Shown piece by piece: positions 10,738 to 47,809 of a stretch of DNA of 64,000 nucleotides (its first letter is position 1; every line of letters begins with the position of its first letter). The stretch lies in assembly GCA_008632985.1 (NCBI GenBank), contig QPGO01000196.1:62001-126000 (forward strand), in the 5' to 3' direction. Origin of the DNA: Psammoneis japonica. Lineage: Eukaryota. The notes under the pieces are model-generated. The model did not search any database. It saw nothing but the letters and a program-made list of their open reading frames with translations, and was not told the origin of the DNA. The translations under genes were made by a program, and so were the position numbers.

Positions 10738-13700
10738 TCAAATCCTGTCACTCCCCAGTTTGCTTGAGGGGTCAACAGCGATAGATTCAAAGTCGGATTG
10801 GTTGAAAGCCTTGGGGTCGAAGTTCCAAAACATTAGAGGATGAAGGAGGTTCCAGATTTGGGAGTAACCCCAATGCTTGCTGAGGATGTCAGCCGGGTTG
10901 TGGGAGCCTTCGATAAAATGAAACTCGAGGAAACTGGAGGCAATCGCCTCACGTACACGATGGAATGAGAGGGCAGTGTGTCGCTTGTGTAACTTGGAGT
11001 GCGGGATGGTGGCACTGTCCACAACTGACTTGTTGTCCCCAAACATGTAAAATGTTTCACGAATGGGAACACCAAGGTAACGTAAAGTGATGCGCAGATC
11101 AATGATCTGCTCAACGCACGTCCTTGCGGCAACAAACTCGGATCCATGCACAGTGGTCTCAACTGTTGCTTGTTTCTTAGAGAACCAATCAGCCAGAAAC
11201 TTGTTGAGGAAATGGAGGATGCCGGTGACAGAGCGTCCAGTGAGCATGCAATGGAACAAGTTTGCATCAACGTAGTGTGTGGTGGTGATGAACTTGCCAA
11301 GCGGCTTGGGTGCATCTTGCGGGAGCAGCTCTTCTACCTCCCCATACACAGATTGAGCCCAGTCATACACGGGCTTAGGGAGGTCCGAATAGTCGGGCTC
11401 CTTGGTGCGCACTCGGAGGGCGCCATGATGCATCTTGGAGAGGAATCCGCAGATGCGTTTGGCACGGTCTAGGTGGCCTTGGCGGGGCGCTGCACGGAAG
11501 CTAGACAGGGACATGACAGCCGTAGTAATGTTGATGCGACCTAGAGACACGGCCCATTGCAGGGATCCAATCAAGGATTGGAGTTGGTGGATGCCCTCCG
11601 GTTTGAGTAATTCGGAGGTGTCGAGCTCAGGGTGGTCACCCTTGTCAAGGGGTGAAAGCACATCAGTGCGGGGCTTCTCCCCAAAGAGACACGCGCAGTT
11701 GTCAACCATGCGCTCAATGTGCTTGCGGGGAGCAAGGCACAGGGTGCCGTCTGGGTCACGGGTGAAGTCGCAGCCAAGATAGAACTCCAATGGTCCAGTG
11801 CCCTTGAGATTGAACTTGCATTTCTCCATGAGGGTGTCTGCAAAAGCCTGGGGGTCCTTCATGGCGAAGGCTAGGTCATCCACATACACTGCCATGTATT
11901 CGTAGTGGTCACCATTCCTGCACAGCCAGATGTCGGGTTTGGCTTTGCATGGGAAGAAGCCTTCAGCACGCAAGCAATTGGCAAAGTGTTCATGCCATCT
12001 GAGGCCGGAGCTGCGGAGTCCATACAATGCCTTGTGGATGACAAGGATGTGTCCTTCCAGGTCGCCGAACTCGGGGCCTGCTATGATGTACAGTTTCTCC
12101 TTGGTCGTAGCTTTGAGGTAGGCATTCCCAATGTCAGTGGCCCAGGTCTCTAGTTCATTGAGTTCGGCCAGGAAGATCATCATTTGCAGGCCACGGAGAG
12201 ACACTACTCCGGAATGGACACTGTCGACGGGCACGTCTGTGAGGTGTCCATCGGCAACAAGCCTTGCTTTGTGCCGTCCGTCATGTTTGACGTCATAGAC
12301 GAGATGCACCCAGATCTTCTTGTGTCCTGATGGAGCACTGGAATCCTTGTGGTGTCCGCAGTCGTGGAAGACCTCGTACTCATCAAGCTGAGTCATCTCA
12401 AGGTCCCTTGCGTCTCCCCACTTGCAGTTGCCGTTGCACTCATCAAGGGCCATGGCATGCTTGTAGTCTTGTGGGACTTCATGCCCATGCTTGTATCGTG
12501 GCGCAGTGCGAAAGGAGCGTAACTTGGCTTGGTTGGCCATGCGGAATGGCTTCTTCTGATGAAGGGCTATCTTGCGAAAACGTATCCATCCTTCGGTTTC
12601 TAGAAGGCCGTGCTCACGCGCGTAGACAGCACAGGTGACGGGGTCGTCCTTGGCAATGATGGCAAGAGGTTCGGACGTAATCTCCCCATTCTCCCATTCA
12701 AGCATGACGTTGTAGCTTGAGCCTTTCCAAGAGGGATCATGGGGTCGCAATGGTCCTTCGTGCAACACGATGCGTCGAAACTTCCAGAGGGTGGTGTCCT
12801 CATCTTCTTGCTCAATGTGGTGCATGATGTTGTTGTAGGCTAGGACTTCCTCGTATTCGTCATTGTTGACAGAGCAAATGAACTTGACCAATTCAGGGTT
12901 GTCTCCGATTTTCCAGTCGTGGTCCTCAACAGCTTTGACGATGCAGGCTCTGTGGCGTTGTCCATCCTCTTGTGGCTTCATGAGGAAGGTGTGTCCGATG
13001 ACATCCTCGGGGTCAAAGACCGGCATTTTGGGCATCCTGATCGCCTCCCCATCTGGTGAATCTGGCAAATCCTCAGAGTCGTGACGGGATTTAATGACAG
13101 GTTTAGCAGATTTCTTATCAGGAGGATCAAGACGCAGGTTTGGAGCAGACGGATCACGGGCAGAGCACACGTTGGAACGGTGGATAATCTTCTGAGTGTC
13201 ATCAGAAAGAATCTTGAACGTCATTTGGTGACCAACGTGTTCAGCGATGCCAATGAAGTGACCATGTAATTCACGGGATTTGGATGGCCAGTCGGAATCA
13301 TCCAGGTGGCAGCACACGTGTTCCCACCATTGAAAACGGAGGAGCGGGCTGATGTCGGGAGTAGAGCCGGACAGCACTTCGGTGGGAGTACACCAGTGGA
13401 GCTTGGCAGACACCGTGTGGTTGAGCACGAAGCACATGTACATCAGGGCGAGTAGCCAGGTGTAAGCCGGAGACCCAAAGCAATCCATGATGGTGTTGGC
13501 CATGGTCTTCACAGTTTGGCAGTGGCATTCAGCAAAATTCTGAAGCTGTTGGTGAGGCTTGCTTTGCCAACTAGAGATGAAGAGGGCACGAAGGATGCCA
13601 AGAACCTTGTTGCTGATCTCAACCTGAGCACGGTTGCTGATGAGCTTGGACGGGGCACCATGATTACGAATGTTGTCTTCGAGGGTGTTGACAAATTCTT

Positions 13701-21988: not shown

Positions 21989-22378
21989 GACGCGTTCCAG
22001 GTCTAGGTGGGACCTCGCACTGCTGAACTGTGACATCGACAGTTTTTTGAATCTCGTCGTATGTCGCGCACGTAGATTTCTACGTGATTTTTTCGATATT
22101 TTGTGTCATTTTACGGTACACTTATTGAGCGATCCGTCCAACAACTTTTGACATTTTTTGTTACAGCGCGATTCTATAATGTCTTAAGAATCGCGTAGGG
22201 CAGGCGAATTTGCAAAAACGTCGAGTGGTAAGAGGCCTAATTGTACCACAAACTTGGCCGTTTATTTGATGTTGAAGATAAATATATCCATTAATTAAAT
22301 TCTCGTACTACGGAGCTCGCACGTAGAATTCTACGGGCCCAATGTCACACGGAGTCCCACCTAGGGCTGGAACGCGTC
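21989..22378. mobile_element. MITE family M, copy 1
   Basis: TIR GACGCGTTCCAG..CTAGGTGGGA and 4 bp TSD ATGC. It interrupts copia gag. Confidence 0.92.
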
Positions 22379-25300: not shown

Positions 25301-25924
25301 TGTAGACCCCATTGTGATGGTGTTGAGGAGTGGTGGGTTGGGCCAAAGCATTCAGCAGAGATGGTTTGCCAAGTGGCGGTGGCGGCAGGGAGGATGGCAG
25401 ACGGGGATTGTTGGCCTAGTAATTCGATGCGGTGTGGCACCGACACGTAAGATGTCAACATCGTCAATCGATCGTATTTGCAATTTTCGACATCCGATCA
25501 ACTCTGTGTGATCATTCTGTCCTTTGTACGTATCCACGACTGTGGTACGATTGACATGTAAATTATATATAATTATGAATATGCACACAACAGTTGCACA
25601 CTGCATTCGCCTCCCTAATTGCACATTAGAGTTATTCGTTAAGTGGAATAATTTGACGGACATTGACATTGTCAATGATGTCTCCACGTTAACTGAATGA
25701 GATAGGCACATGTACTTTATGACCGAGTGTGCCCTCTCTGATGTGTGTATATTAACTAACGTATTAGATATTCAGGAAGCCGTTAGAAGTCAGTTCCGAT
25801 CAGCGATTGCGCTGATCGGGTCTCTTCTCGGTTCTCCCACAACTTTTTATCAAGTCATCTCAAGCTAGATCTTGCACTGTAATTACAGTCGTTGTTATAG
25901 CTTGTTCATTGCATTATCAACTTT

Positions 25925-26128
25925 ATGACAACGCGAGGAGTGTTATCGAGAAGAGAGAAAATTTATTTACGAGCTCGTGCAGAAAATTTCATTCGAAGTC
26001 AATCAGAATCGCAGCGTGGTTGCACTCGTGAAATTGGCGATTCGGAGCAGCGTTTGTTCGAACTCGAATCTCGTATTGCCACTCTTGAATTTGTCATTGT
26101 TTGGTTGTTGATTGTTCTCGTTGTGTGA
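25925..26128 (+). CDS. Small upstream ORF (ORF0) of element C: basic + coiled-coil, hydrophobic C-terminus
   Basis: 67 aa, similar to ORF 37763..37978 at the same position in element D (LSRREKIYLRARA vs LTKREKRELRARA). Confidence 0.65.
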   Translation: MTTRGVLSRREKIYLRARAENFIRSQSESQRGCTREIGDSEQRLFELESRIATLEFVIVWLLIVLVV

Positions 26129-26201
26129 TTCAATTGGGAACGTTTTATTTCGTTTATCTTGTGGATTGTTGATTATTTGATCGCTGAAATTGTTCATCGC
26201 C

Positions 26202-27389
26202 ATGCATCAAGAAGCCTTGGAGAAAGCGTGTATTGAACATAAAACCAAATTCGTGGATTCTGAGCTACAGGAAGTGAAGCTCACTCAAACCTTCGATGAT
26301 GGCACTAAAATTTCAAAAATGTGTCCTATTTTCACAGGAGAGCATGGAATTGAATCATTGTTGCACGTGGAGGATAGGTTCCGGAAGGTGGCAAGACAGC
26401 TGGATTATGACACCGGAACGGAATTATTTGATGCTTTCGAGGATTGTCTCCAGGGAACAGCGGAGGCAAAATGGCAGAACATTACCGCGGGTATCCCACA
26501 GAATCAACGGATGGTAGCTCGATTTGATCAGGCTATCTCAGCCTGTTATCTACACTGTGTGAAACCAACAGCTCGCGACACGATGAAGATGCATTTGCCC
26601 ACTTGCAAAAAGCCTTACTCAGCGGAATCTGAAACTCATGTTGATCGTATGGAGACGTTGTTTTGTCACACTAACCGTTTGCCTGGTACCGTTCCTGCAC
26701 TTACAGAGCAGGAGCAGAAAAATATCATCTTTTATACCTTCCCTTTGACCTGGCAGCAGTCCTACATTCGTGCGGGCAAGAACCTTGTTACGGATTCTAT
26801 GGTGGATATCCAAGCCTACATGAGTAATGAGAAAGTGTTTGCCGATGGTCAAGATAACAAGAAACGCAAGTCCAGTAATGGCAATGGAGGGAACTCCAGT
26901 AACAAAAAGGGTAACCGTGACAAGAAGGATGGCAAGGGCCAACCGAAGGCAGGTGACCCGTGTCCGGTCCCGTGGCACCATGGAAGGCATGCGTGGGGCC
27001 AATGTTGTGATAATCCAAACAACCCTAAATTTCGTGGGCCTCAGAACCGTGGCGGTTGAGGAGGAGGCCGTGGCGGTGGACGCTTTGGTGGTCGTGGTAA
27101 CCAGAACCAAGGAGGTCATGGCACCTGTTATAACAACAACAATGGAAATCAAAATAACAATGGCAACCAAGGTGGTGGTCAACATTATTATAATGAAAAC
27201 AACAACCGTGGAGGCCAAGGACAGGCCGACGGATGTGCTGCTCAAGCAGACAATATGAATGATAACAACCAGGCTCGAGAAGCTCCTCGTGGTGATGTGC
27301 ACCATTTCGATATGATCGGACGAGGCCCTCCACGATGCGGAGGTGTGGTGAGGTTTCAGCCGGACGGGCAGTTTCCTCGGCAGTTCTGA
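26202..27389 (+). pseudogene. gag: Gag of element C, with a premature TGA at 27057
   Basis: Homologous to D gag (EVKLTQ, HGIE.LL.VEDRFRK, RMETL). It has a CPVPWHHGRHAWGQC knuckle. The RGG/Asn-rich tail continues in frame past the stop. Confidence 0.85.
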
Positions 27390-29799
27390 GAAGAAGGAGC
27401 TGAATGCTCCGGAGCTGAATGCTCCCAATTGCCTATGAGAGAAGTGTTTGTTGAAGAAAATGATTGTGTTTTACCTGAATGAAATGATGAATGTTTTGCT
27501 TTTGATTGTTTTGAAAACCCTGACGAATTGTTACCTGTTGAATTTGAAAATACTGCAGAAAATTACATGAATGAAGAGGGGGATGTGTTTGATCAAGATG
27601 CATTTGAACACAACATTCCTCTCCCCAAAATGAGTTCGCAAGTCTCGCGTACCGCATTGGTTCCATCTACACTACTTGTTGCAAAATCAATACAACGGCA
27701 TGAGTCGAATCGTGTGATGCGTGTTTTGTTCGATTCGGGTGGTTCTCACACTATGATTTCGTCTCAAGTTTTACCTCGAGGAGCCGCACCATCCATTGAC
27801 GAACATGGAGTCCGAGCTTTTCAAACCATGGCAGGTCCTTTCCAATCGGGTCGTTGGGTGGCCTTGAGTGACATCGTGTTACCGGAATTCGACAAAACTA
27901 GGAGGATTGACGGCTGTGTGGCTCACGCATTTGATGCTCCGTGTGCGTATGACATCATTTTGGGTTGAGATTTCTTGGACAAGATTGGTCTCAACCTGAA
28001 CTATGACACGAGGACACTACATTGGCTAGACCGTGTGATCCCAATGAAGGAACCTCGTCATTGGTCCAAATCCTGCAATTGGCATGTGGCTTTAGATCGA
28101 ATGGATGAATTTGATGAAGATTGTGAAGACGAGTTGGACTATGGATACGATGATGGATGTGATAACTACATGCTCGACGCCAAGTATGAAGCAACGGATC
28201 CAGCGGAAGTGGTTCGGAACTTAGATCATCTCATGGAAGAGCAAAAGAAGAAGCTGTTAGCGGTGTTGGAAAAACATTCGACCTTGTTTGACGGAACTTT
28301 GGGGCACTATCCTCATGAAAAGGTACACCTCGAAGTGGATGAAAATGCTGTTCCATGTCACTCAAAACCATTTCCTGTTGCTCGAGTCAATGAAGAAGCG
28401 TTCAAAAAGGAACTAAAGCATTTGGTGAATCTCGGCGTACTTCGACCATGTGGACCTATGGAATGGGCAGCCGGCACCTTCATTGCTCCAAAGAAGGACG
28501 GCCGAGTACGATGGGCACCCGATTTTCGGGAGCTCAACAAGGTCCTTAAGCGAAAAGCACATCCTCTACCAGTTATTCAAGATGTGCTACAAAGGAGAGC
28601 GGGATACAAGTTCTTCACGAAATTGGATCTCACTGTGTTCTACTGCAATTTGGAGCTGGACGATGAAAGCAAGGAGCTCGCTACGATTGCAACTCCGTAC
28701 GGGAAGTTCCAGCATTGTCGTATGGCTGTGGGATTAAAACCAGCTCCGGATGTTGCTCAGTCCATCATTGAAAAGATTTTGCATGGTTTGGATGTTGAAA
28801 CTTACATTGATGACATTGGCGCATTTGACACTGACTTTGATTGCCATCTCTCTCGTCTTGACAAGGTGCTACATCGTCTCGAGGAGAATGGTTTGAAAGT
28901 TAACCCGTTGAAATGCGAGTGGTGTGTCCAAGAAACCGATTTTCTAGGGCATTGGCTTACTCCAACTGGCATTAAACCGTGGAAAAAGAAGGTCGAGGCG
29001 ATCCTACGAATGCAACCTCCACGGGATGCTACTCAGCTCCGGTCGTTTCTCGGTGCAGTGACCTGTTGTCGTAATGTGTGGCCTCGCCGTTCTCACCTGC
29101 TTGCACCTCTGACTGAATTGACAGGCAAGAGTCAGTTCCAATGGACAGAATCATGTCAGAAAGCGTTCAAGGAGATGAAGGCGGTAATCGCGGCGGAAGC
29201 GTTGATGGCCTGCCCTAACCATAACCTGCCATTCCATGTCTACACTGATGCATCAGACTACCAGATGGGCGCCGCTATCATTCAAGATGGTAAACCTGTA
29301 TGGATCCGCCTTCGGAGGGGAAGAGCCTTGGGCCAAGTGGCAAACGCAAAGGAAAAATTGTTCATTTTGAAAAGTTGGATTCCAAGGAACTGTGCACTAT
29401 GCTCGAAGAACGAGTGTAAACGAAAGTAGAACGAAGTTCAAAAAGTGAAAATTATGAGAATTATTTCTACGCAATCATTTTGGGTTTCTCCGAACGGGTT
29501 CTCAATAGCCTAAACCTTTTGTACTGCTCCTGCAGACAAAAGGCCTTTCGGAGAATATGATCGTGACAACAGATTGTCCGGATACGATTGACATTGACAC
29601 ATAAGATGTCAACATCATCGTACGATCGCATTTGCGATTCTCGACATCCGATCACTTCTGCGTGACCGATCTGTACTTCGTACGAACCCACGATTGACGT
29701 ACGATTGAAGTGTACTTTTATTTAAAATATATAGATATACACATGTAATACGTACATAACAACGCATGTTGCATTCGCCTCCCTAATTGCACATTAGAG

Positions 29800-32700
29800 T
29801 CAGTCGTTAAACGGCATTATCCGACGAATATTGACAGTGTCAATAACGTCACCGCGTTTGATCTGCACTGTGCCATTAGTATGTACCGTTGTTATTTCGT
29901 ACGGTCCAACATAGGGCTGTTCTAATTTTTGCGAGTCTTTCTCGAGTAGTATCTTTTCTCCTACTCTGTACGTGTAAGGAGTACGTCGAGCATTCTCTCG
30001 AGCGTTATTTTTATTTATGATTTCTTATTTTCGCTGCTGGATTAATTTCCAGTCTGCGACATGTTGGACGTTAAATGTCATGTCTCTATTGAAGACTAGT
30101 TGTCCTGGTGTAGCTTGCATAGTGGTATGATACGTAGAACGTACCGCAAATGCTACCGCTGATAGTATTCCAGCGAAAGGATCCTCAGCATCTAGAGGTG
30201 TATGTTGCAAATCAAATGTATGGAGCATGTTCCCCAGCACTTGATGTACGCGTTCAATAATTGCGTTTGCTTGTGGATTTCGTGTAGTTATAGGCTTGAC
30301 TTTAATGCCATAATCATCTTGCACCATTTCTCTAAATTGGTGTCCGATGAACTCACTTCCACAGTCATATGTAATTAACGATGGCCAAGGATATCTACTT
30401 AACCATGTTCGTTCTAGCAGTCCAGCTACAGTTATGGACTCCTTATTTGGGATTTCCACGACTTCAAACCATCCGGTTGCTGGATCGATCATTGTTAAAC
30501 ATTTCAGGACTAGGGGTTCTTTCTTTCCCTTACAACGTATTTTGTATGGCCCAATAAGGTCCACACATAGTCGTTCCCATGGTACGGATTCTGCGCACTT
30601 AGGAGGTAAATGTCCACATTTCTTGTGTTTCTTTTTGAATTTTTGGCACGTCTCACATCTCAACACGTATTTTCGTATGTCTTCACGTAAGGTGGACCAC
30701 CACAGGTGTTGTGAGATTGTTTCTTCTGTTCGATTTATGCCAGGGTGAAGAAGGTACGTATGACACCAATCTATCACTGCCTTTTGTAACGTCCTCGGGA
30801 TGACAATTTTATCCTTATGACATATGAGCAACCGGTCTCGCTCGCCTCCACGAAAAGTCTTCGTATGAAACGTCTTATTTGACAATTGGGAGAGAATGTC
30901 TTTGTCCCGTTTTTGTTCATAATCAAGAACTTTGTAATTTAACGGAAAGACATTGTCGTAGGATTTTGGCAGGACCTTTTCAGCTAGCTCTTCTGTGCTG
31001 AGGGTTTCCATAGGTTCTATTTTCTTCACAGTAAGTCGGCTAATCGCATCTGCGACAATATTTGCCTTGCCCTCAAGGTGTGTTATTTTGGGACTGTATT
31101 CTTCTATTATTAGACGCCAACGCATGACTCTGTCCGTTGTGAAATTTTTATGTGTGAGATTTTTGTGATCCGTGTATATATTTATCTGTTGGCCAAACAG
31201 CACATTACGGAACTCTTTTAACGTCTCCACTATGGACAATAGTTCTTTTTCCGTTGTAGTATAACGCGTCTGCGCTCCATTCAGCTTGCGGCTGTAGAAG
31301 GCAATTGGTCGGTTTTTCTGAGTAATAACCGCCCCCAATTGAGAATTACTAGCATCAGTATATATCTCAAAGGGCACATTAAAATTCGGGTATGATAACA
31401 GCATATCTTTGGAGATGATGCGCTTCATATTTTCGAAGGCTTTTTGTTCTGTTTCGGTCCATTGCCACTTTACTTGGGTAGAAGTGAGTTTGGCTAAAGG
31501 AGCTAAAACATGAGATCGTCGAGGCCACATGTCTCGATAGTAGTTGATCATGCCGATAAAGCGTCGCAATTCCTTGCGAGTTTTAGGAGTTGCGATCGCG
31601 TGAATCGCTTCTACTTTTTTTGGAATCGGACTGATGCCCTTACGGGTGACATGAAAGCCTAGATAGTCTACTTCGGGTTTAGCGAAAAAGGACTTCTCGG
31701 CGTTGACCTTCAATCCGGCTTGTTCTAGGCATAAGAACACCGTTTCAAGCTTCTTGAGGTGGTCTTGAAAATCACCTTTTGTAAGACACAATATATCATC
31801 AATGTAAGTTCTGACGAACTCCAGACCTGCCATGAGCTCACTCATGTGCTCTTGGAAAATATCTGGAGCTCCACAGATTCCCATCGGGAGTCTACAGTGC
31901 TCATATTTGCCCCAAGGCATGACGATCGTGCACAAGCGACGTGCATGCGGCGTCAATTCGACATGATAGTATCCCATGTTTAAATCTAGGGACGTTGCAT
32001 ACATGAAGCCTTCGAGCTTCTGTAACATATCCTGAATATTGGGCAGAGGAAACGGAGTACGAATTAACCTCTTATTTAGCTCACGAAAGTCAGATAAGAA
32101 CCGAACTCTACCATTTTTCTTGGGTTGAATAAAGGTTGGAGCCGCCCATTCAGAACAGTTTATTTTTCTTAAGACTTTCAACTTGCATAGTCTTTCAACC
32201 TCCTTACGAGCAGTCGCCTCCAAGGCTTGTGGTGCGGGAAATGGTTTGGCATGATACGGACTCACGCCCGATTTCAACTTCAAATCCACCGGTTTCCCGG
32301 TCCATTTGCCTAGAGAACCATTGAAAAGGTTTTCAAATCTTTTTAAGAGGAAGTTCAGCTGCTTCTGCTCTTCAGGAGTTAGATGAGTAGCTGCTGCAGT
32401 CACATTATTGAGGTTTGCAGAGTGACAGTCTGAGTCAAGGATCCGATTGACCCTGTCATTAAGACCAATCACTGCATGAGATTCCTCAATATGATCGGCA
32501 ATCAACTTAAAAACATCGGCATCGAAGAGTGCATCAACATTCTTCATAGGAGTAGTTGCATCTTCCCATTTAATCTCTTCATTCGAGAAGTCCAACATTG
32601 TCCCAAGACTTGACATTAAGTCGCGTCCCATGATCATGTCATAACGACTCAAAGAAGAAGGGGAGTTGTCAACATGTGCCGTTGTTTCAATCATCTTATG

Positions 32701-33000
32701 TTTGTCAAATTCGGGTAAGGAGAATTGGATCTTACATCGACTGTCAGTCGTAAAGAGCCCTCCTTTGGTTTCCCAGAGTTTGGTGGCGGATACTTTGGTT
32801 CTGAGTTTCCGCGTGAATTTGCGCAAAATTATGGTTGACGATGTTCCGCTATCGAGGAGAACGCGTAGAGGCTTATTTTTCGCTTTACCTAATGAAGCAT
32901 TCATATAGGCGACGACTGCTGGACTAGCATGAATTACTTTGGCCCTTTTTCTGGGCTTCCTAATATCCAGTAGAGCGTAAGACTCCTCTTGCGGTGCAAG
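29800..33000 (-). CDS. pol: Pol of element B (PR-RT-RH-IN), with one premature TAA at 30025
   Basis: LLDSGTS, LDLNMGYY, YIDDIL, YTDAS, HPG..CETCQ, VDLIGP and NPQANAIIER are present. The frame continues after the TAA to a TGA at 29800. Confidence 0.93.
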
Positions 33001-34155
33001 TCATTCCTCAGAATCACTGCGCGTCATTTTTTCAAACTGACAATTCTCCTCGTCAAGGGTGTCAGAATCATAATCTTTGCTCTTGTGCTTTTTATCATTG
33101 TTCGAGGAACTCGCTTTGAGCATTTTTTGAACTGCTTGGATCGCCATAGCATTCAACTCTTCTTTGCGAGCGGCGTTGTCGTTATCGCGACGAGACCACG
33201 TGCGCTTGCCATTTGAACGGCGCCGTTTTGGGTCGGGTTCATAGTTCCCACGGCGTTCTTTCGCAAGTCTTTTGATCGACCAGCACTTGTCCGTGTTGTG
33301 AGTGGATTTCTCGCATGAAATGCACCACTTCTCGGACTGAGATTTTTCGGTGCCATGTTGGTGACCATTTTTGGAACCACGTTGGGAACCACTCTTGGCT
33401 TTTGATGCAGCACCGCCACTGCCATCAGCCTTGGCATGAATGCCATCGAATATGTCTTCTGCGACCTCTAGGCGTTCCAAGAACTCAACCAACTCGTCAC
33501 AGGTATGTTTCAAAATTTCGAAACCCTGGACGGTCGACTGACGCTGCCACTTTCGAGGTGCAAGATTGAAGAGGATGTCCTTGAGCTCGTCGTCCTCGAT
33601 CTTCTGTTCCTTCCCAAAGGGAGGATAGAACTTGAGGTCTTCGTTGACTTCCTGGACCCAAGCAGCAATTTCGCGCACTTTCATGGACTCCGGCTTCTTG
33701 AGATCACGACGCAAATAACGTTTCTGCACCGAAAGTGCGTTCTTGGGAAACACATGCCTCGTGAGATGTTGTAGGCATTTCTCGAAGCTTCCTTCCGCAG
33801 ATTCGTCTTCAAGGTTCGCTGCCGCATTCTCGAAAGCACGTAGAGCGTCTCCTTGGAGTAACACACGCATGAGACGAAACTTATCAGATTGCTTCCTGAC
33901 ATTCTGGCCCACTAGAAGTTGATCGTAGCTCTTGAGAAATTCGATGAACTTGGGGACACCTTGTTTCTTGTAGCACTCGACATTGATGGTGTAGGTACGG
34001 CTATCCTTCTTCTCGGGATGAAAACGTTGCTCCATCTTGAGGCACTGGCTCGGTTTGAGGCTCTTCGGCTCGGAGTTCGATTCCAGCGGTTGAGGAACGA
34101 TTTTCTCCTGCCTTAACGAAGTTTTAGCGTTGGTTACATGAGGTGAAAGCTTCAT
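33001..34155 (-). CDS. gag: Gag of element B
   Basis: Open ORF from ATG at 34155 with LLQGDAL..F, QKRYLRR and a CxxC-H-C knuckle (CISCEKSTHNTDKC). Confidence 0.88.
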   Translation of the reverse strand: MKLSPHVTNAKTSLRQEKIVPQPLESNSEPKSLKPSQCLKMEQRFHPEKKDSRTYTINVECYKKQGVPKFIEFLKSYDQLLVGQNVRKQSDKFRLMRVLLQGDALRAFENAAANLEDESAEGSFEKCLQHLTRHVFPKNALSVQKRYLRRDLKKPESMKVREIAAWVQEVNEDLKFYPPFGKEQKIEDDELKDILFNLAPRKWQRQSTVQGFEILKHTCDELVEFLERLEVAEDIFDGIHAKADGSGGAASKAKSGSQRGSKNGHQHGTEKSQSEKWCISCEKSTHNTDKCWSIKRLAKERRGNYEPDPKRRRSNGKRTWSRRDNDNAARKEELNAMAIQAVQKMLKASSSNNDKKHKSKDYDSDTLDEENCQFEKMTRSDSEE

Positions 34156-35335
34156 CTTGAACTTATTACCTTCTGTGGTGTGTATACACAATGCACTATG
34201 CTCGAAGAACGAGTGTAAACGAAAGTAGAACGAAGTTCAAAAAGTGAAAATTATGAGAATTATTTCTACGCAATCATTTTGGGTTTCTCCGAACGGGTTC
34301 TCAATAGCCTAAACCTTTTGTACTGCTCCTGCAGACAAAAGGCCTTTCGGAGAATATGATCGTGACAACAGATTGTCCGGATACGATTGATATTGACACA
34401 TAAGATGTCAACATCATCGTACGATCGCATTTGCGATTCTCGACATCCGATCACTTCTGCGTGACGGATCTGTACTTCGTACGAACCCACGATTGACGTA
34501 CGATTGAAATATACTTTTATTTAATGTGTAGATATACACACATAATACATGCATAACAACGCACATTGCAACTGAGCAAAGCCGAGGAAGAGGAAGATTT
34601 GGAGTTGGGCGCTTGCAGGTTCAAGTGTTGCCGTGCTCCGGTTGATCCTTCTGATGAGTCTCACGCCGCCTTTTCCTCTCTGCTTGATGAGCCTGAATTG
34701 TTTGAATGCTTTTTGAATTACCCGACGCTGGACGAAATGCCGAATCCTACTGAGATGCTAAGGATACAACAGTTCCAGTTCGAAGACCTCCAACTGAATC
34801 AGCAAAGACAACAAAATCAGCAGCAGTTCGTGGTCAAGATTGTGAATCATCGCCCCCTGATTTGTTGTCGTTTGCATCTGAATGATCCGCCTGGAGCCTG
34901 GAAAATTTGCATTCCTGCTGCGTTGTTGCCGGACACCATTGCATGGTGCCATCACGCATTGGGCCATTGTGGAGTCGTGCGATTGTATGAAAGTATTCGG
35001 ACTCATGTGCATCATCCTGCATTGCATCGACGTTGTAACGAATTTGTTTGCGATGCGTGTCAACGATTTAAACAACTGGGTCCTGGATGTGGAGAGTTAC
35101 CTCAACGTCAAGCACCTTTGGCTCCGTGGACGGAAGTAGCGGTTGATCTCATTGGACCGTGGAAAACACCGATTCAAGACCAAGAGATTGAATTCAGCAC
35201 TCTCACTTGCATTGATGCTGTCACTGGATTGACTGAACTCGTGCGCATTGACAACAAAACTTCTCAGCATGTGACTAACAAGTTTCGCAACCTTTGGTTA
35301 GCTCGTTATCCCAGACCGAATCGATGCATCCATGA

Positions 35336-35727
35336 GACGAGTTCCAGGTCTAGGTGGGACCTCGTATACTGCTGAACTGTGACATCGATAGTTTTTTGAA
35401 TCACGTCGTATGTCGCGCACATAGATTTCTACGTGATCTTTTCGATATTTTGTGTCATTTTACGGTACACTTATTGAGCGATCCGTCCAACAACTTTTGA
35501 CATTTTTTGTTACAGCGCGATTCTATAATGTCTTAAGAATCGCGTAGGGCAGGTGCATTTGCAAAAACGTCGAGTGGCAAGAGGCATAATTGTACCACAA
35601 ACTTGGCTGTTTATTTGATGTTGAAGATAAATATATCCATTAATTAAATTCTCGTACTACGGAGCTCGCACGTAGAATTCTACGGGCCCAATGTCACACG
35701 GAGTCCCACCTAGGACTGGAACCCATC
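35336..35727. mobile_element. MITE family M, copy 2
   Basis: Near-identical to 21989-22378. TSD ATGA. It splits the integrase of element C. Confidence 0.92.
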
Positions 35728-36156
35728 ATGACAATGGTGGAGAATTCATTGGTTGGGAGTTCCAAATGCTACTAAATCAAGCGGGCATTGCTGATGCGCC
35801 GACGATGTCTCGAAATCCTACAGCCAACTCCATTTGTGAACGAATGCACCAGATGGTAGCTGACATCTTACGTACTGTGGTTGTCACTAACCCACCTTTA
35901 AATGTTCAACAGGCCAAGCAGATTGTGGACGATGCCCTTGCTACAGCCTCTTATGCTTTACGATGCTCCCACTCAAGGTCTGTGGGTGTTTCAAGTGGAG
36001 CTCTAGTGTTTCAACATGATATGATTTTGGACTTACCAGTTATCTCTGACCTTGCTACGATGCAAGCCAACCGACAAGCATTGATCGATGAGAATCTACG
36101 ACGACAGAATGCAAAGCGCCATTCCCACGATCATCTAGTTGGTCAAGATGTATTAA

Positions 36157-36602
36157 CACCCGCATCCACGGATTCACCAGGCAACACTCGGGTATGGCAA
36201 AAAGTGTGCATTTGGTCAAAATCGATTATTGAGTGCAAATGGTGGCATCTTTGGGGTCCCTTTAGTGAGCCGAACACGCACATTTCTCATCTGACCATCA
36301 CAGGTCGTCTTACGGGGTGTCAAAATGTCGTGCTTTAATGTGTGAATTTTCAATTTTATATAACCTTGGTGGCTGGATACATTATATAACAATTAATTTT
36401 CAAGACGCGTCAAAGCACGACGTTTTGACACCCCCCATAAGACGGACCCATGATGGTCAAATGAGAAATGTGCGTGTTCGGCTCACTAAAGGGACCCTAA
36501 AGACACCACCATTTGCACTCAATGATCAATTTTGACCAAATGCACACTTTTTGCCATACCCGACTTTTGCCAATTTTGCCTGGTGAATCCTTGGATGCGG
36601 TG
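36157..36602. mobile_element. TTAA-flanked foldback element with long TIRs (piggyBac-like target site)
   Basis: TTAA|CACCCGCATCCACGGATTCACCAGGCAA...TTGCCTGGTGAATCCTTGGATGCGGTG|TTAA. The inverted arms are ~180 bp. Confidence 0.88.
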
Positions 36603-37762
36603 TTAATCAAGTCGGTGGATCCTTCAAAGTTGGAAGAACGAGCCTGTGGTCCGTTTCGAATTGTACAAGTCCATGTCAACGGGACTGTTTCGGTGCTGCG
36701 AGCACCGCACGTTATTGAGCGAATTAACATTCGCCGCATGGTGCCGTATCGGAGTTGAGGGTTTTTTCCCAACGTCTGGGTTCCCTTCTCCGTGCGCATT
36801 GGGTTTGAATTTTAATCAAGTGGTTCCAATGGTGCGCGTGTTCCTTGCACCATGGAGGGGAAGAGTGAATGAGATAGGCACATGTACTTTATGACCGAGT
36901 GTGCCCTCTCTGATGTGTGCACATTAACTGACGTATTAGACATTTAGGAAGCCGTTAGAAGTCAGTTCCGATCAGCGATTGCACTGATCGGGTCTCTTCT
37001 CGGTTCTCCCACAACTTTTTATCAAGTCATCTCAAGCTAGATCTTGCATTAACTGTATTGTGCTATTAGCAATGACTGTTGTTGTTTTATAGGCCAGCAT
37101 AGGGCCGTTTCAATTTCCAAATGTCTTTCGAGAGTGTCATGGTTTGTCTCACGCTCTATGTGCATATATAACGCTCTATGTGTATGCATATATATAAATA
37201 TACTGTAGTATTGCGTCGAGCATTCTCTCTGACATTATTTTGTTCATGTGGACACAAGGACCAATTGTCCTGCTGTTCTTTCATGGTGTCGATTGTACAT
37301 AGCATTCTGCCCAGGAAGTCGCCGCAAAAGCGTGGAAAGTCTGTCGCGGATACTTTCCACTTTATTAATTATATCTATATACAAAAAAATATAACACAAT
37401 ATTAATTTGTTATGAATAACTTATATATTCCTTTTTATATTGCCCTTACAACCTAAGTAATTTTGGTTCGAAACCGTTGAGTGATAATGTTTATATAAAG
37501 TGATAAAGTGTTCATTAAGAAAGGGTCATTATGACCGTTTTTGATCAATGACTTTCCACGATAGAATTACTGCAATGTCTCGCACCTTATTTTTCTGATA
37601 CACAGTATTAATGAACCTATTAGATATAACGGAAGCCGTTGTAACGGGCTTCGCTGAAAGCGACCCTCGTTACCTCGGTCTTTCGCTCACAAATTTTGTT
37701 ATCACTGAAGTCTTTATCTCGTTAGACCTTGCACTGTAATTACAGTCGATTCAAAGAACTGG

Positions 37763-37978
37763 ATGGAGACTAGGAACAATACAAACAAATTGACTAAACG
37801 TGAGAAAAGAGAACTACGCGCAAGAGCAGCAGTTTGGGCTATTGAGCACCAGAAACAAGTACAACAACGTAAACGACACGAACAGAATTTGGCGAGCCGA
37901 GTGCATCATTTGGAGTCAAAGGTAGAGTCCCTGGAGAGGACTATTGAACAATTGTATTCCCTTTTTCATGATGAGTGA
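37763..37978 (+). CDS. Small upstream ORF (ORF0) of element D: basic + coiled-coil
   Basis: 71 aa ATG-initiated ORF similar to C ORF0. Its end overlaps the gag start (ATGATGAGTGA). Confidence 0.65.
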   Translation: METRNNTNKLTKREKRELRARAAVWAIEHQKQVQQRKRHEQNLASRVHHLESKVESLERTIEQLYSLFHDE

Positions 37979-39188
37979 ATCGTTGAAGGAGCCTTGCATT
38001 AGCTATGAAGCTAAATTTGAGCATTCTGACTTGGAGGAAGTGAAATTGACCCAATCGCATGATGACGGTAGTACTCGTACAAAAAAGTGTCCGCGTTTTG
38101 ATGGTACTCATGGCATTGAAGCATTGTTATTCGTTGAGGATCGTTTTCGTAAAATTGCTGTGAAATTGGAGTACACTACTGGCGAGGAGTTGTTCGAAAA
38201 TTTCGAGGAAGTGCTTACGGATACTGCAGAGGACAAGTGGGCGAACTTGACCAATGCAATTGACGATGCCGATAAAACTGTCGAGCGTTTTGATCAGGAA
38301 ATCAATCGTTTTTACTTGTCTTATTGTGATAATGAAGCGCGTGATACGATGATTGAATATTTGTTAACTTTGAAGAAACCATTCAAATCTGAAGTACAGG
38401 CGCATGCAGATCGCATGGAAACCTTGATTCGGTGCTCCAACAAACTACCAGGAAATACTCCTCAAGTCAACGAAGCTCAGAAGAAAAAGATGATATTCGA
38501 TAGCTTTCCTCGTCCGTGGCGTGAGATGTATACTCGAGCAGGACGAGCGATAGCGAACGATACTCTCGCTGAGATCATTAGTTATGTGAACAACGAGAAA
38601 TCTTTTGCTGACAAGAGTAGCAACAAGAAGCAGGACAAGAAGAGGAAAAGCAATAGTGCTTCGTCTCAAGCTTCAAGACGCTCTCGTGGCAATAGTGGTA
38701 GAACGGATCCAGAATCTAGATGCCCGGTACATACGAATCACGACCACAAGTGGAAGGATTGTATTTTGAATCCAGAAAGCCAAAACTGTCGACCAAGGTC
38801 CGACCGTGGCGGTCGTAGCGGAGGTCGTGGTGGAGGCCGAGGAAACTACCAAGGTAGAGGACCCCAAGGTCGAGGCGGTCGTGGCAACTTCCAAGGTCGA
38901 GGACGTGGTAATTATGGTAATCAAGGAGGACATGGAGGCCGAGGTTACGGCAATTATAACAACTCCCAGAATTCTCAAGGGAATGGATCCTATTACCAAA
39001 ATCAAAACGGCACCCAAGCCAACAGTGATACCCAAGGCTATGGAAATCCGGCTGGAGCAGCTCCTCCTGGTGGTTGGCAAATGGAGTCGCACCATTTTGA
39101 TCAAGGAGGGCCTCGTGAGATGCGAGGTGGAAATGGATACGATCAGAACGGTCGTACCCATCAAGGCCAACGAAGTTGGCGTAATTGA
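37968..39188 (+). CDS. gag: Gag of element D
   Basis: Open ORF with a CPVHTNHDHKWKDC knuckle and an RGG/NQGY-rich tail. Homologous to C gag. Confidence 0.88.
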   Translation: MMSESLKEPCISYEAKFEHSDLEEVKLTQSHDDGSTRTKKCPRFDGTHGIEALLFVEDRFRKIAVKLEYTTGEELFENFEEVLTDTAEDKWANLTNAIDDADKTVERFDQEINRFYLSYCDNEARDTMIEYLLTLKKPFKSEVQAHADRMETLIRCSNKLPGNTPQVNEAQKKKMIFDSFPRPWREMYTRAGRAIANDTLAEIISYVNNEKSFADKSSNKKQDKKRKSNSASSQASRRSRGNSGRTDPESRCPVHTNHDHKWKDCILNPESQNCRPRSDRGGRSGGRGGGRGNYQGRGPQGRGGRGNFQGRGRGNYGNQGGHGGRGYGNYNNSQNSQGNGSYYQNQNGTQANSDTQGYGNPAGAAPPGGWQMESHHFDQGGPREMRGGNGYDQNGRTHQGQRSWRN

Positions 39189-42100
39189 CAAGGGACGGAA
39201 GTGCCCAAGTCAGAGCGTGTCGCTCAATCTTTTTATGTTTCGTGTGATCGTGAAGAAAATATATGTTTTAATGTTGATGACAATGTGGGAGACCTGATGG
39301 AATCTTATACTATGAATGAAGAAAAATTGGGCGGCGTTTTGGAGTACGCTGTACCAACCCCTAAAACTACGACTCCTAAACCATTGAATGTGGTGCCAAC
39401 GACGTTGATGGCGGCGCGTGCCATTCAAAATCAAGAGAGTAAGCGAGTGTTACGAGTGCTATTGGATTCAGGAGGTACTAACACTCTTGTTCATTCTCGA
39501 GTTTTGCCGAAGGGAGCGAATCCAACCATGAACGATGAAGGACGGTTGAGCTTTCAGACGGTAGCCGGACGATGTGAATCCTCCCGATACGTTATTATGA
39601 AAGACTTGACATTGCCAGAATTTGACAAGTCAAAACAAGTCGATAGTATTGCGGCTCAAGTTTTTGATGCCCCATGCAAGTATGATTTAATTTTGGGACA
39701 AGACTTTTTGTCGAAAGCCGGAATCGTGCTTGATTTTCGATTTGGAATAATAAAGTGGTTGGAAACGTCGATCCCAATGAAGCAATCCAATCATTGGAAC
39801 TCAGTTCAGAATTGGTTGGATACACTGGAAGACGACGGAGAGGACGAAGACGATGAGGAAGCCTTCGGACAATCTTTTATGATGGACGCCAAATACGAAA
39901 AAGTATCATCCGCGAAAGTGGCGCAAGCTCAAACTCACTTAACTCAAGAACAACGTGATGAGCTACAAGCAGTGCTTGAAAAGCATGAAACCCTCTTTGA
40001 TGGAACGCTTGGTAAATATCCGCATGAGACTGTTCACTTGGAAGTTGATCCTAACGCTGTTCCCTTCCATTCTAAGGCTTATGAGGTATCCAAGAGGGAT
40101 GAAGCCGTTTTTAAGAAAGAACTACAGCATTTATGTAATATTGGCGTACTGGAACCAGTGGGACCAACTGAATGGGCAGCCGGAACTTTTGTAACTCCCA
40201 AAAAGGATGGACGAGTTCGATGGGTATCCAATTTTCGAGAGTTGAACAAGGTACTCAAACGAAAGGTCTATCCTCTACCGATCATTCAAGACGTTATTCA
40301 CCGACGCTCAGGATACAAGTACTTGACCAAGTTGGACCTCACTATGTTTTATTATCATATCGAGCTTGACGAAGAATCCAAGGATTTGTGTGCTATTGTT
40401 ACTCCGTTTGGAAAATTTCGATATTGTCGATTGGCCATGGGTTTGAAAACCTCTCCCGATATTGCTCAAGCCATCATTGAAAAAGTGGTAAAAGGAATCG
40501 ATGTTGAAACTTACATCGATGATATTGCTCAATTTGATGATTCGTTTGATGCTCACATACGTCGACTCGATGAGCTGTTATCCAGACTAGAAGAGAACAA
40601 TCTGAAAATTAACCCACTCAAGTGTGAATGGTGTGTCCAAGAGACGGATTTTTTAGGCCATTGGCTCACGCCTACAGGAGTCCGACCGTGGAAGAAGAAA
40701 GTGGAAGCGGTGCTACGAATGCAACCACCTAAAACTATGACACAACTACGATCGTTTATCGGTGCAGTAACTTATTATCGCAACATGTGGCCTCGTCGCT
40801 CACACGTGCTCGCTCCACTCACGAAGTTGACAGGCAAGAGCAAGTTGGAATGGACCCCTGAATGTCAACGAGCCTTTGAAGATATGAAAACTTTGATGCT
40901 GGACGACACCCTTTGGGTCTACCCGAATCATAACAAGCCATTCCATATTTATACTGACTCTTCGGACTATCAGATGGGAGCCGTAATTATGCAAGACGGG
41001 AAACCAGTAGCTTGCTGGTCCCGGAAACTCAGCGCAGCACAACAGAACTACTCTACGATTGAAAAAGAATTATTGGCGGTGGTAATGTGTTTCAAAGAAT
41101 TTCGAAGCATGTTATTTGGAGCTGACTGTACTGTTTTTACGGATCATAAAAATCTCACCTTTCGTACGCTCAATTCTCAACGAGTTCTTAGGTGGCGACT
41201 CTTCTTGGAAGATTTTGCCCCAACTTTCGAATACGTTGATGGCAAAGATAATCTTTTGGCGGATTGTTTTTCAAGATTGCCGCATATGGACCCTCCTACG
41301 GAAGGGAAGTGTGCTCCTAACAAGGGCAAGCTAATTGATTTTAAGACGATCAACCCTGCTATGCTACCGCATGAAGAAGAACTGGACGACCAAAACAGTG
41401 TGTCTCATTTTTCCTATCGTCGTAAAGAACCATCTCCATTTTATTCTTCTGTCGTGGACGACCCCGAATTGTGTGAATCATTTTTGAACTATCCTTCTCT
41501 CGAGGAAATGCAAAACCCTACAACTGTGCAACGAATTCAAGAGTACCAATTCGTCGACGTGGAGCTGAACAATGTGCGACAACAATATCCAGAACGCTTC
41601 GTTGTGGAACATGTGAATCAGCGTCCTGTAATTTGTTATTGTGCTCGACCGAATGATCCTCCGACTGCGTGGAAAATTTGTATTCCAACAGCGTTGCTGC
41701 ATGATATCATACGATGGCATCATAGGATTTTGGGACATGCAGGAGTGCACCGAATGCATTCCACTATTGGCGCACATTTCTGTCATCCTGCCCTTCGTCA
41801 ATCCTGTGAGAGATTTCATTGTGCTGATTGTCAACGTTTGAAAACTTTAGGCCCTGGACATGGGGACCTACCTGAACGGGAAGCGCCTTTATTACCATGG
41901 ACGGAAGTTGCGGTTGACCTCATCGGTCCCTGGAAAATTGAAATTCAAAACCATGAAATTGAATTCAACGCTTTGACTTGTATTGATGCCGTTTCGAATG
42001 TGACTGAACTTGTTCGTATCGACAACAAAACCTCGTCTCACATTGCTCAACAATTTGAAAATTGTTGGTTGTCTCGTTATCCTCTTCCTAACCGGTGTAT

Positions 42101-42683
42101 CCATGACAATGGTGGAGAATTCATTGGAGAGGACTTTCAATTGTTATTGCAACGAGCAGGAGTGGAAGACGCTCCGACTATGTCGCGAAATCCACAAGCC
42201 AATGCGGCATGCGAGCGTATGCATCAAACTGTTGGAAATGTCTTACGCACTTTGCTTCATGTTTATCCTCCACAGAATGTTGAGCAGGCTAATCAACTAG
42301 TGGACAATGCATTGGCAACCGCCATGCATGCAATGCGATGTGCGGTTTCTCGTGCTCTCAAGATATCACCCGGTGCTATGGTTTTTCAACGTGACATGAT
42401 TCTTGACTTACCGGTCCTAGCCGATCTTGCTACCATTCAAGAACACCGACAAGCGATTGTTAATGCGAATCTCCGTCGAGCCAACGCTAAACGCCGATCC
42501 TACGATTTTCAAGTTGGCGGACAAGTTCTACTCAAGGCTATCGACCCAACCAAGCTCGAGCCACGAGCTCACGGTCCATATCCTATCGTTCAAGTACACG
42601 CTAACGGTACACTTACGATCCAACGTACACCTCATGTGACAGAACGATTGAACACACGTCGCGTCGTACCGTATCATACCTGA
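39189..42683 (+). CDS. pol: Pol of element D (PR-RT-RH-IN), fully open and in frame after the gag TGA
   Basis: LLDSGG, YIDDI, YTDSSDYQMG, FTDHKNL, HAG..CADCQ, VDLIGP, HDNGGEF and NPQANAACER are present. Confidence 0.95.
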   Translation, partial: QGTEVPKSERVAQSFYVSCDREENICFNVDDNVGDLMESYTMNEEKLGGVLEYAVPTPKTTTPKPLNVVPTTLMAARAIQNQESKRVLRVLLDSGGTNTLVHSRVLPKGANPTMNDEGRLSFQTVAGRCESSRYVIMKDLTLPEFDKSKQVDSIAAQVFDAPCKYDLILGQDFLSKAGIVLDFRFGIIKWLETSIPMKQSNHWNSVQNWLDTLEDDGEDEDDEEAFGQSFMMDAKYEKVSSAKVAQAQTHLTQEQRDELQAVLEKHETLFDGTLGKYPHETVHLEVDPNAVPFHSKAYEVSKRDEAVFKKELQHLCNIGVLEPVGPTEWAAGTFVTPKKDGRVRWVSNFRELNKVLKRKVYPLPIIQDVIHRRSGYKYLTKLDLTMFYYHIELDEESKDLCAIVTPFGKFRYCRLAMGLKTSPDIAQAIIEKVVKGIDVETYIDDIAQFDDSFDAHIRRLDELLSRLEENNLKINPLKCEWCVQETDFLGHWLTPTGVRPWKKKVEAVLRMQPPKTMTQLRSFIGAVTYYRNMWPRRSHVLAPLTKLTGKSKLEWTPECQRAFEDMKTLMLDDTLWVYPNHNKPFHIYTDSSDYQMGAVIMQDGKPVACWSRKLSAAQQNYSTIEKELLAVVMCFKEFRSMLFGADCTVFTDHKNLTFRTLNSQRVLRWRLFLEDFAPTFEYVDGKDNLLADCFSRLPHMDPPTEGKCAPNKGKLIDFKTINPAMLPHEEELDDQNSVSHFSYRRKEPSPFYSSVVDDPELCESFLNYPSLEEMQNPTTVQRIQEYQFVDVELNNVRQQYPERFVVEHVNQRPVICYCARPNDPPTAWKICIPTALLHDIIRWHHRILGHAGVHRMHSTIGAHFCHPALRQSCERFHCADCQRLKTLGPGHGDLPEREAPLLPWTEVAVDLIGPWKIEIQNHEIEFNALTCIDAVSNVTELVRIDNKTSSHIAQQFENCWLSRYPLPNRCIHDNGGEFIGEDFQLLLQRAGVEDAPTMSRNPQANAACERMHQTVGNVLRTLLHVYPPQNVEQANQLVDNALATAMHAMRCAVSRALKISPGAMVFQRDMILDLPVLADLATIQEHRQAIVNANLRRANAKRRSYDFQVGGQVLLKAIDPTKLEPRAHGPYPIVQVHANGTLTIQRTPHVTERLNTRRVVPYHT

Positions 42684-43310
42684 GGTTAAGGGTTTTCTCC
42701 CCAACATTTGGGTTTCCCTTCTATCCTCATCCATTGAAATTTAAATTTTTTGAGTCCCGCATGATTCTCGACACTCGAATCATGGAAGGGAAGAGTGCAG
42801 TGTCTCGCACCTTATTTTTCTGATATATAGTATTAATGAACCTATTAGATATAACGGAAGCCGTTGTAATGGGCTTCGCTGAAAGCGACCCTCGTTACCT
42901 CGGTCTTTCGCTCACAAATTTTGTTATCACTGAAGTCTTTATCTCGTTAGACCTTGCAATTACATCGTGGAATACATTCCACGATGCTGTCGTGGAAAGT
43001 GAAGACTTTCCACGATACAATCGTGGAAAGTCATATGACTTTCCACGATGACTTTCCACCTTTCGAGGCTTATGTAAATGCCCGTAAAATAGGGTCATAT
43101 GACAAAATTTTGATCTCATCGCAACGCCTTGATGCCTACCTACCATACAAATCTTGCCATTTTCCAACGATTTTGGAACAACTCCCTCTCCAAAATCCAA
43201 GCCGTTACCTGCCTGCAAGGCCCAGTTCTTTCCCGCTTTACCGTTCGCCATGTACATGTACACCACTCCACTAGGCGATGTAGTGCATGAACTTCTCACA
43301 AGCGCATACT

Positions 43311-43706
43311 GACGCGTTCCAGCCCTAGGTGGGAGCTCGTAGCACTGACGTGTGACACAAATAATTTTTATCATCCGTCGTATGTTTCGCACGTACATTT
43401 CTACGTGTGATATTTAAAAAAAATTGTCCAGACTTGCTGTTTTGCGAAGCCCCAGACGTTTTACATGACGCATTTATAGAAACAATAATGCGCCAGTTAC
43501 ATTCTTCAATGTCTGAAGAATGTAACTGGCTAAGTAAAAATCGATGTACTTCAATCATGTGCGAGTTTTTGCGTTCGCAAAATTGCCTCATTTTCTGTTG
43601 GCGAACATTGACATTCTAATTACCGTATAATTTTACTACGGAGCTCGCACGTAGAATTCTACGGGCCCAATGTCACACGGATTCCCACCTACGTCTGGAA
43701 CGCGTC
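43311..43706. mobile_element. MITE family M, copy 3
   Basis: TIR GACGCGTTCCAG..TAGGTGGGA. TSD TACT/TGCT. The empty site is seen in the duplicated segment at ~54982. Confidence 0.9.
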
Positions 43707-47736: not shown

Positions 47737-47809
47737 GAAAAGGTAAGCTCAGTGGTAGAGCTTCGCCGATCATAGGACGAGGCCGGGGGTTCGAGTCCCT
47801 CCCTTTTTC
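47737..47809 (+). ncRNA. tRNA-like / pseudo-tRNA Pol III cassette (also at 48464-48536 and 54629-54701)
   Basis: Box A-like AGCTCAGTGGTAGAGC and box B GGTTCGAGTCC. Acceptor stem GAAAAGG/CCTTTTT, D stem GCTC/GAGC and T stem GGGGG/CCCTC. The anticodon arm is non-canonical. Confidence 0.7.

Follow-up and report, generated by a model that had tools for sequence, protein, structure and literature searches.

The stretch of DNA considered here (hereafter the window) comprises 64,000 nucleotides (nt) of the diatom Psammoneis japonica (assembly GCA_008632985.1, contig QPGO01000196.1, positions 62,001 to 126,000 of the forward strand) and carries two divergent Ty3/gypsy retrotransposons, elements C and D, in each of which a small open reading frame (ORF), here termed ORF0, lies between a perfect 14-nt palindrome and gag. 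Element C (25694-37048, forward strand) is bounded by a 5' long terminal repeat (LTR) of 183 nt (25694..25876), which begins with TG and ends in TTGCA, and by a 3' LTR (36866..37048) that is 97% identical to it and is preceded by a purine tract; a 5-bp target duplication, TTAAC, flanks the whole at 25689-25693 and 37049-37053. The palindrome of C, ACTGTAATTACAGT, occupies 25876..25889, i.e., the primer-site position, and ORF0-C, a frame of 67 amino acids (aa) opened by an ATG, starts 36 nt past it (25925..26128), its stop codon being separated by a gap of 73 nt from the ATG of a shortened gag (26202..27059; 285 aa). C is a decayed copy, and its pol is interrupted both by a nested minus-strand gypsy element (element E) and by a repeat of ~360 nt.

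Element D (37571-42958, forward strand) looks intact, with a 5' LTR of 163 nt (37571..37733), a 3' LTR (42796..42958) 98% identical to it and a target duplication ATTAC, so that a direct LTR pair with TG..TTGCA ends and a 5-bp target-site duplication are found in both elements. The same perfect 14-nt palindrome stands at 37733..37746, and ORF0-D (37763..37978; 71 aa), likewise opened by an ATG, starts 17 nt past it. The stop codon of ORF0-D (37976-78) lies within ATGATGAGTGA and overlaps the ATGATG with which gag (37968..39188; 406 aa) begins, the two frames sharing 11 nt and gag being in the +1 frame with respect to ORF0. Downstream, pol (39189..42683; 1128 codons counted from its first ATG) codes for protease, reverse transcriptase, RNase H and integrase, and the order of its Pfam domains (Asp_protease_2, RVT_1, RT_RNaseH, Integrase_H2C2, rve) is that of Ty3/gypsy elements (Metaviridae). 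At the gag-pol junction of D (39186-39300) the two genes share one frame with a single stop codon between them, after which the frame is directly open, a layout of stop-codon readthrough rather than frameshifting. Between C and D, the gag proteins show 45% identity. The presence of the two small frames in this position, the overlap of ORF0-D with the gag ATG and the hydrophobic end of ORF0-C, which finishes in FVIVWLLIVLVV, had all been pointed out in a preliminary description of the locus and are borne out. We consider it probable that ORF0 represents a genuine accessory gene, translated into protein, which a single sub-lineage of the diatom Ty3/gypsy elements with palindromic priming would have gained in the space separating the primer site from gag.

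The two ORF0 products resemble each other as proteins to an extent that their nucleotide sequences do not reflect. Compared by BLASTP from the first methionine, they are identical at 24 of 65 positions (37%) with an E of 4e-5, and their local alignment score of 57 is reached by none of 20000 shuffles of the D protein (mean 25.4, maximum 54), a result that is unchanged without the hydrophobic tail of C; the shared motifs listed in the preliminary description are thus real. When all nine pairs of frames between the two leaders are compared, ORF0 against ORF0 scores 63 and the other eight pairs score 13-33. The "little nucleotide identity" noted earlier can now be put at 82 of 201 bases (41%) in the codon alignment, distributed over first, second and third codon positions as 43, 51 and 28%, with the third at about the random level (Fisher test of positions 1 and 2 against 3, p = 0.015). 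Further, 15 of the 21 residues identical in this alignment are specified by different codons, some of them requiring two base changes (e.g., Arg AGA/CGT and AGG/CGA, or Leu TTG/CTC). The N-terminal 215 codons of gag display the same pattern at lower divergence (61, 69 and 39%), with different codons at 59 of 106 identical residues. The codon swaps and the randomized third positions thus indicate selection at the level of protein rather than of RNA, and the folding of the leader RNA, which is not unusually stable in either element (z = -1.66 in D, -0.03 in C), provides no alternative explanation in terms of RNA structure. As far as the sequences allow this to be judged, the view that conservation acts on the peptide and not on an RNA element is supported.

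These comparisons also bear on the possibility that ORF0 is a non-functional remnant or chance frame, with the leader being non-coding (e.g., a packaging or dimerization region) and the similarity reflecting mere ancestry or composition. Such an explanation could draw on the failure to find homologues, on the relatives that manage without the frame and on the location of one of the two copies in a dead element. However, it has to account for a protein identity of 31-37% confined to one frame pair, in the face of the low overall and third-position identity, and for the shuffling result. In a simulation of unconstrained divergence, in which ORF0-D was allowed to drift to 41% nucleotide identity, the frame stayed free of stops in 72 of 5000 runs, and the number of identical residues averaged 10.6, with 21 or more being retained in a single run of 5000. 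Shuffled leaders contain an ORF of the length of ORF0 in 154 of 5000 cases for C and in 15 of 5000 for D. With the unexceptional folding of the leader added to this, a remnant or chance frame appears highly improbable, and the earlier suggestion of a selected microprotein gains support from the codon swaps, the position-specific identities and the neutral simulation alike.

The arrangement of start codons before gag offers a second line of evidence. No ATG in any frame intervenes between the ATG of ORF0 and that of gag, either in the 274 nt of C or in the 202 nt of D, and for C dinucleotide shuffles of the interval contain 6.3 on average, with none of 2000 being as low. The ORF0 start codons stand in the contexts aactttATGa (C) and aactggATGg (D), both with T at -3, and those of gag have G at -3 in C and, in D, a doubled ATGATG of which the second has A at -3. 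Going upstream from ORF0, the last ATG is found at 25741 in C (184 nt away) and at 37611 in D (152 nt away), in both elements within the very short LTR, where it coincides with or precedes a TATA-like motif, so that the AUG of ORF0 would be the first of the genomic RNA. The layout fits that expected if leaky scanning serves to translate two cistrons from one RNA: ORF0 would come first on the full-length genomic RNA, a part of the scanning ribosomes would initiate at its AUG because of the weak context, and the remainder, meeting no intervening AUG, would pass on to gag. In D, the overlap of stop and start could contribute some termination-reinitiation as well; it is not common to both elements, since the stop codon in C lies 73 nt ahead of gag.

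The same layout is what might be expected of a regulatory upstream ORF (uORF), translated only to throttle or time the synthesis of Gag and yielding a peptide without function of its own. ORF0 indeed occupies the leader immediately ahead of gag, with its stop overlapping the gag start in D and the interval being ATG-free; moreover, a sister clade of metagenomic relatives, taken up below, has an upstream ORF of 55-57 codons that overlaps gag, in seven of eight loci, which suggests that uORFs recur in leaders of this kind. A uORF acting independently of its peptide should, however, hold its position and not its sequence, whereas in ORF0 the sequence, the heptad register and the basic motif have been kept while synonymous sites were randomized. 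A length of 67-71 codons is also large for a purely regulatory uORF. On balance, a uORF without a functional peptide is rather unlikely.

That ORF0 might instead encode the N-terminus of Gag, with frameshifting or splicing providing the connection, had been raised in the preliminary description as a possible objection. It is prompted by the +1 frame of gag relative to ORF0 in both elements and by the 11-nt overlap of the frames in D. In C, however, stops in the frame of gag occur within the 73-nt gap as well as ahead of it, so that a single shift cannot fuse the two, and 19 aligned gags, those of C, D and 17 relatives, all begin in the same methionine region with at most three extra residues, one relative starting later still. 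The relatives without ORF0 have a complete gag, and no fused protein appears among 1.84 billion representative proteins or in a search of longer proteins. A frameshifted or spliced extension is barely credible.

The shape of the peptide is consistent with a product under selection. AlphaFold2, given an alignment of the two sequences only, predicts for each a single unbroken helix with a mean pLDDT slightly above 90 (residues 12-69 and 90.6 for D, residues 9-66 and 90.5 for C). The C-terminal half has the pattern of a leucine zipper: in ORF0-D the d positions are L43, L50, L57 and L64 and the a positions V47, V54, I61 and F68, and over residues 40-71 hydrophobic residues occupy eight of ten a/d positions against two of 22 others. 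ORF0-C keeps the same register (L47, L54 and L61 with L44, I51, I58 and L65), and eight of its nine a/d positions are hydrophobic. The first 40 residues are basic in both, with 12 K/R against five D/E in D and nine against five in C, and hold the shared motif L-S/T-K/R-R-E-K-x-x-L-R-A-R-A. The ~70-residue peptide would therefore, if the prediction holds, consist of one long alpha-helix with an Arg/Lys-rich N-terminal half running without interruption into a C-terminal zipper of four heptads, and it would most likely form a coiled-coil oligomer whose basic arms may contact nucleic acid. Prediction of a two-copy complex of ORF0-D is neutral on dimerization (score 0.24, mark 0.32), and a profile of C and D retrieves from the PDB generic coiled coils only, with GCN4 zipper constructs at the top (E ~0.005).

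The outline just described recalls the basic leucine zipper (bZIP) proteins (PF00170, PF07716), in which a basic helix likewise runs on into a zipper of leucine heptads, and one might envisage that a fragment of a host transcription factor was captured and is being carried along as a passenger. The layout fits, and ORF0-D has a weak match to Pfam bZIP_2 (E 0.017; 15.7 bits against a cutoff of 22.3) besides one to bZIP_1 (13.2 bits, cutoff 27.6). ORF0-C, however, has no Pfam bZIP match at all. In the basic region of bZIP proteins, the signature consists of an Asn and an Arg that do not vary and stand a fixed distance ahead of the first zipper leucine, and this pair is absent, on reading the sequences, at that spacing before both L43 of D and L47 of C. 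Nor was a cellular homologue found, the sole database hit (P0018, see below) being no relative, and the conservation of ORF0 across two families with only 45% identity in gag speaks against a recent passenger. A captured host fragment thus has a very slim chance of being the correct account. Of the earlier label "bZIP-like", the helix and heptads stand, and membership of the family does not, with the Pfam matches below cutoff in D and lacking in C; by its sequence, ORF0 appears to be a basic zipper in outline and no demonstrable member of the bZIP family.

The distribution of ORF0 has to be set against these positive indications. A search for relatives of the gag of these elements yielded 17 (among 573 candidates), and scanning metagenome contigs with the gag alignment located 15 loci on 14 contigs, near-duplicates included (L004 equals L005 in gag, and L007 and L014 share one contig). 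All 15 keep the same palindrome (that of L009 being recognized through a motif search), and in all 15 the leader from palindrome to gag ATG measures 26-97 nt, compared with 312 nt in C and 221 nt in D. Searches for further gag relatives gave 193 pattern matches in viral contigs and two in genome contigs, none being confirmed in either. The gag tree, which has 30 rows and excludes L012-L015 (gag pieces of fewer than 200 residues), places C as sister to the relative P0001 (support 100/98) and D on an unresolved backbone (64/77). An approximately unbiased test does not reject a clade of C, P0001 and D (log-likelihood difference 0.64, p = 0.44), so that the tree is compatible with a single gain of ORF0 in an ancestor shared by C and D; its loss in other clades is also possible.

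Several points weigh against ORF0 being an accessory gene. The preliminary description had named related families without the ORF as a finding that would tell against a selected microprotein, and such families are what the survey turned up: an ORF0-like frame is present in none of the 15 related loci nor in the nested element E, and tblastn of both ORF0 proteins against the 15 loci gave no match below an E of 0.5. It follows that ORF0 is a lineage-specific add-on rather than a feature of the clade and that elements of this kind can dispense with it. Homologues of ORF0 were not found in any search made. With ORF0-D as query, phmmer returned a single match among 1.84 billion representatives of all lengths (P0018, E 2.2e-4); the profile of C and D found none among seven near-length and 1106 longer candidates drawn from 5.8 billion clusters; and a scan of viral contigs produced 49 pattern matches, of which none was confirmed. 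P0018 was considered as a relative and rejected, being a MADF-domain protein in which a repeated IESL..TLPQIQSVF motif sums to the score. The best ORF0 score in the ESM Atlas, 0.86, corresponds to no family and is to be taken as a lead only.

To these must be added that there are only two instances of ORF0, both within one window, and that C is a dead copy. The NG86 procedure gives a dN (nonsynonymous divergence) of 0.92 for the pair and leaves dS, its synonymous counterpart, undefined through saturation, for which reason there is no dN/dS value for ORF0. The depletion of ATGs is marginal when D is taken alone, its shuffles averaging 2.2 with 106 of 2000 being as low, and the AUG of ORF0 is no more than probably the first of the genomic RNA, given that the start of that RNA is placed from sequence motifs. 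Finally, the two proteins differ at their ends, the last 12 residues of ORF0-C being hydrophobic and the tail of ORF0-D polar. The tail of C may represent a late alteration of this dead copy. Read one base forward it becomes ...LLNLSLFGC*, sharing SLF with the ...LYSLFHDE* of D, and could thus have arisen by a late 1-nt shift; against this, the existing frame of ORF0-C retains the I and L positions of D in heptad register. With these points included, we still regard a translated accessory gene as the probable nature of ORF0.

Contigs from outside the assembled copy add to the picture of element D. Among the contigs of a DNA run (X1) covering 37000-39400, 792 belong to this family. They differ at 384 variant places (40 listed) and by 20 indels, and of the 12 indels listed none falls in ORF0. 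Two single contigs join 37747 to 37971 and 37769 to 37968, skipping exactly the ORF0 interval, and may represent copies without ORF0 or copies with a diverged one. Over the same region, A>G and T>C changes predominate in X1 (114 and 83 places), and in ORF0 the three best-supported differences from D (37816, 37861 and 37955) lie at TA steps (cTA to cTG, gTA to gTG and TAt to CAt). This pattern fits TA-directed hypermutation, and the D copy in the window looks like an unmutated one.

Among the metagenomic relatives, the sister clade mentioned above (L006-L011, L014 and L015) carries an upstream ORF (MLINN...QLN*) that is different from ORF0 and not homologous to it. It starts 6 nt past the palindrome and overlaps the start of gag in another frame; the locus in which it is not kept, L006, stops at codon 31. 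The leader of this clade, some 100 nt before the gag ATG, has two hairpins, GTTAATGCTGATTAAC and TCGTCG..CGACGA, the second of which seems to vary between loci by compensatory pairs.

The palindrome itself deserves comment, as it stands where a tRNA primer site would normally sit. The LTRs of both C and D end in TTGCA, and ACTGTAATTACAGT begins on the last base of the LTR, thereby straddling its end; the sequence occurs in the window exactly twice, at the two elements, against a chance expectation of 0.19. Element E (minus strand, ~29393-34700, with 30025..34203 as the part used for comparison), whose LTRs are 99% identical, has its gag at 34155-33001 and its pol at 32904-30025, the latter being 37% identical to that of D. 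Directly after its 5' LTR (..AGTGCA) it displays a perfect 12-nt palindrome of its own, TGTGTATACACA, 27 nt before the gag ATG (34150-34203), so that a palindrome at the position of the tRNA primer site is also seen in another, distantly related gypsy family of the window. A dimer of basic arms beside a perfect site of two-fold symmetry is the classical geometry of recognition, and it could be imagined that dimeric ORF0 recognizes its own 14-nt palindrome, as duplex DNA or as an RNA-RNA duplex, and so promotes genome dimerization and tRNA-independent priming. If this were true, ORF0 would constitute a retroelement-encoded, sequence-specific cofactor of the start of its own reverse transcription. 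Relatives retain the palindrome without ORF0, and we rate the idea as a long shot.

Other features of the window may be noted briefly. The very short LTRs of C and D have in common a block TATTAGATAT..GGAAGCCGTT, followed by a strong hairpin whose sequence differs in each element, and the two may mark the RNA start or a signal in R/U5. The ~360-nt repeat occurs at 22019-22378, 35368-35727 and 43634-43706, with the first two copies 97% identical and one copy situated in the integrase region of element C. The segment immediately 5' of the 5' LTR of C (25435-25690) resembles 29589-29858 and 34388-34542, which are parts of the LTRs of E, at 75-83% similarity and in the same orientation, and C may have inserted beside a solo LTR of an E-like element. 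A Ty1/copia element is recognizable on the minus strand at 10738-15120 from an ORF of 1460 codons with the copia-type RT (reverse transcriptase) domain RVT_2. An Rfam scan of the window has a tRNA at 47737-47809 as its sole match.

To our knowledge, accessory genes of LTR retrotransposons are rare, and those that have been studied, such as sORF2 of flies and CERV of Cer1, revealed new steps in the life cycle of their elements. Seen in this light, C and D offer a compact case in a stramenopile alga, in which a ~70-residue zipper peptide under protein-level selection is combined with a leader seemingly adapted to leaky scanning, the elements also having a palindrome in place of the tRNA primer site. 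Should the peptide prove to be produced, it would be a candidate handle on the packaging, dimerization or regulation of the element RNA; otherwise, the selection signal would have to be explained in a different way. Since close relatives without ORF0 exist, its gain or loss should be datable with more genomes.

Parallels can be drawn with several known systems. The leader of Rous sarcoma virus has three short uORFs of a few codons each, conserved in position rather than in peptide; like ORF0, they are AUG-initiated frames between primer site and gag that ribosomes have to pass or to reinitiate after, and unlike them ORF0 is conserved as a peptide. A literature search brought to light no account of a small zipper ORF ahead of gag in gypsy elements of diatoms or other stramenopiles, and the part of Maumus et al. 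2009 (PMC2806351) consulted, which describes the GyDi elements, makes no mention of such an ORF. With regard to the earlier remark that ORF0 falls outside the canonical gypsy layout, extra ORFs before gag do have precedents in gypsy elements, in flies (PMC11952523) and in plants (PMC6317226). In plants, the eORF-5'F class of Ty3/gypsy elements (e.g., the Ogre lineage) has extra forward ORFs in the 5' part that are linked to lineage (PMC6317226). ORF0 resembles these in being an additional forward 5' ORF whose presence follows lineage, and it differs in size, the plant survey having considered ORFs of at least 250 codons and ORF0 having 67 or 71 in leaders of 221-312 nt.

The closest precedent is provided by the MDG1 group of Drosophila (412, mdg1, Stalker, Blood and Tabor), in which, according to PMC11952523, the 5' LTR is separated from gag by two small forward frames, sORF1 (~110 aa) and sORF2 (~70 aa). 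Their sequence has been known since the 1980s, and their translation from unspliced full-length RNA was shown in 2025, with detection by mass spectrometry; they are lineage-specific within gypsy and are reported to have a low dN/dS. In the same source, sORF1 is a predicted helix-turn-helix protein and a nuclear candidate, and sORF2 a FAST-like membrane protein whose hydrophobic domain lies in the middle, next to a polybasic region, an N-terminal myristoylation signal (MGxxxS/T) being present as a rule. Measured against that description of sORF2, its transmembrane, polybasic and myristoylation features are not those of ORF0: ORF0-D, by prediction a soluble helix of the basic-zipper type, is without a hydrophobic segment, ORF0-C has only the 12-residue hydrophobic tail at its C-terminus, and the two begin with METR and MTTR, respectively. 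There is also one ORF here in place of two, a relation in sequence is not to be expected, and the host is a unicellular alga, in which the soma-to-germline transfer that can be considered in flies has no meaning. What ORF0 shares with the MDG1 frames, as these are portrayed in that source, is the arrangement itself, namely a small forward ORF placed between the 5' LTR and gag.

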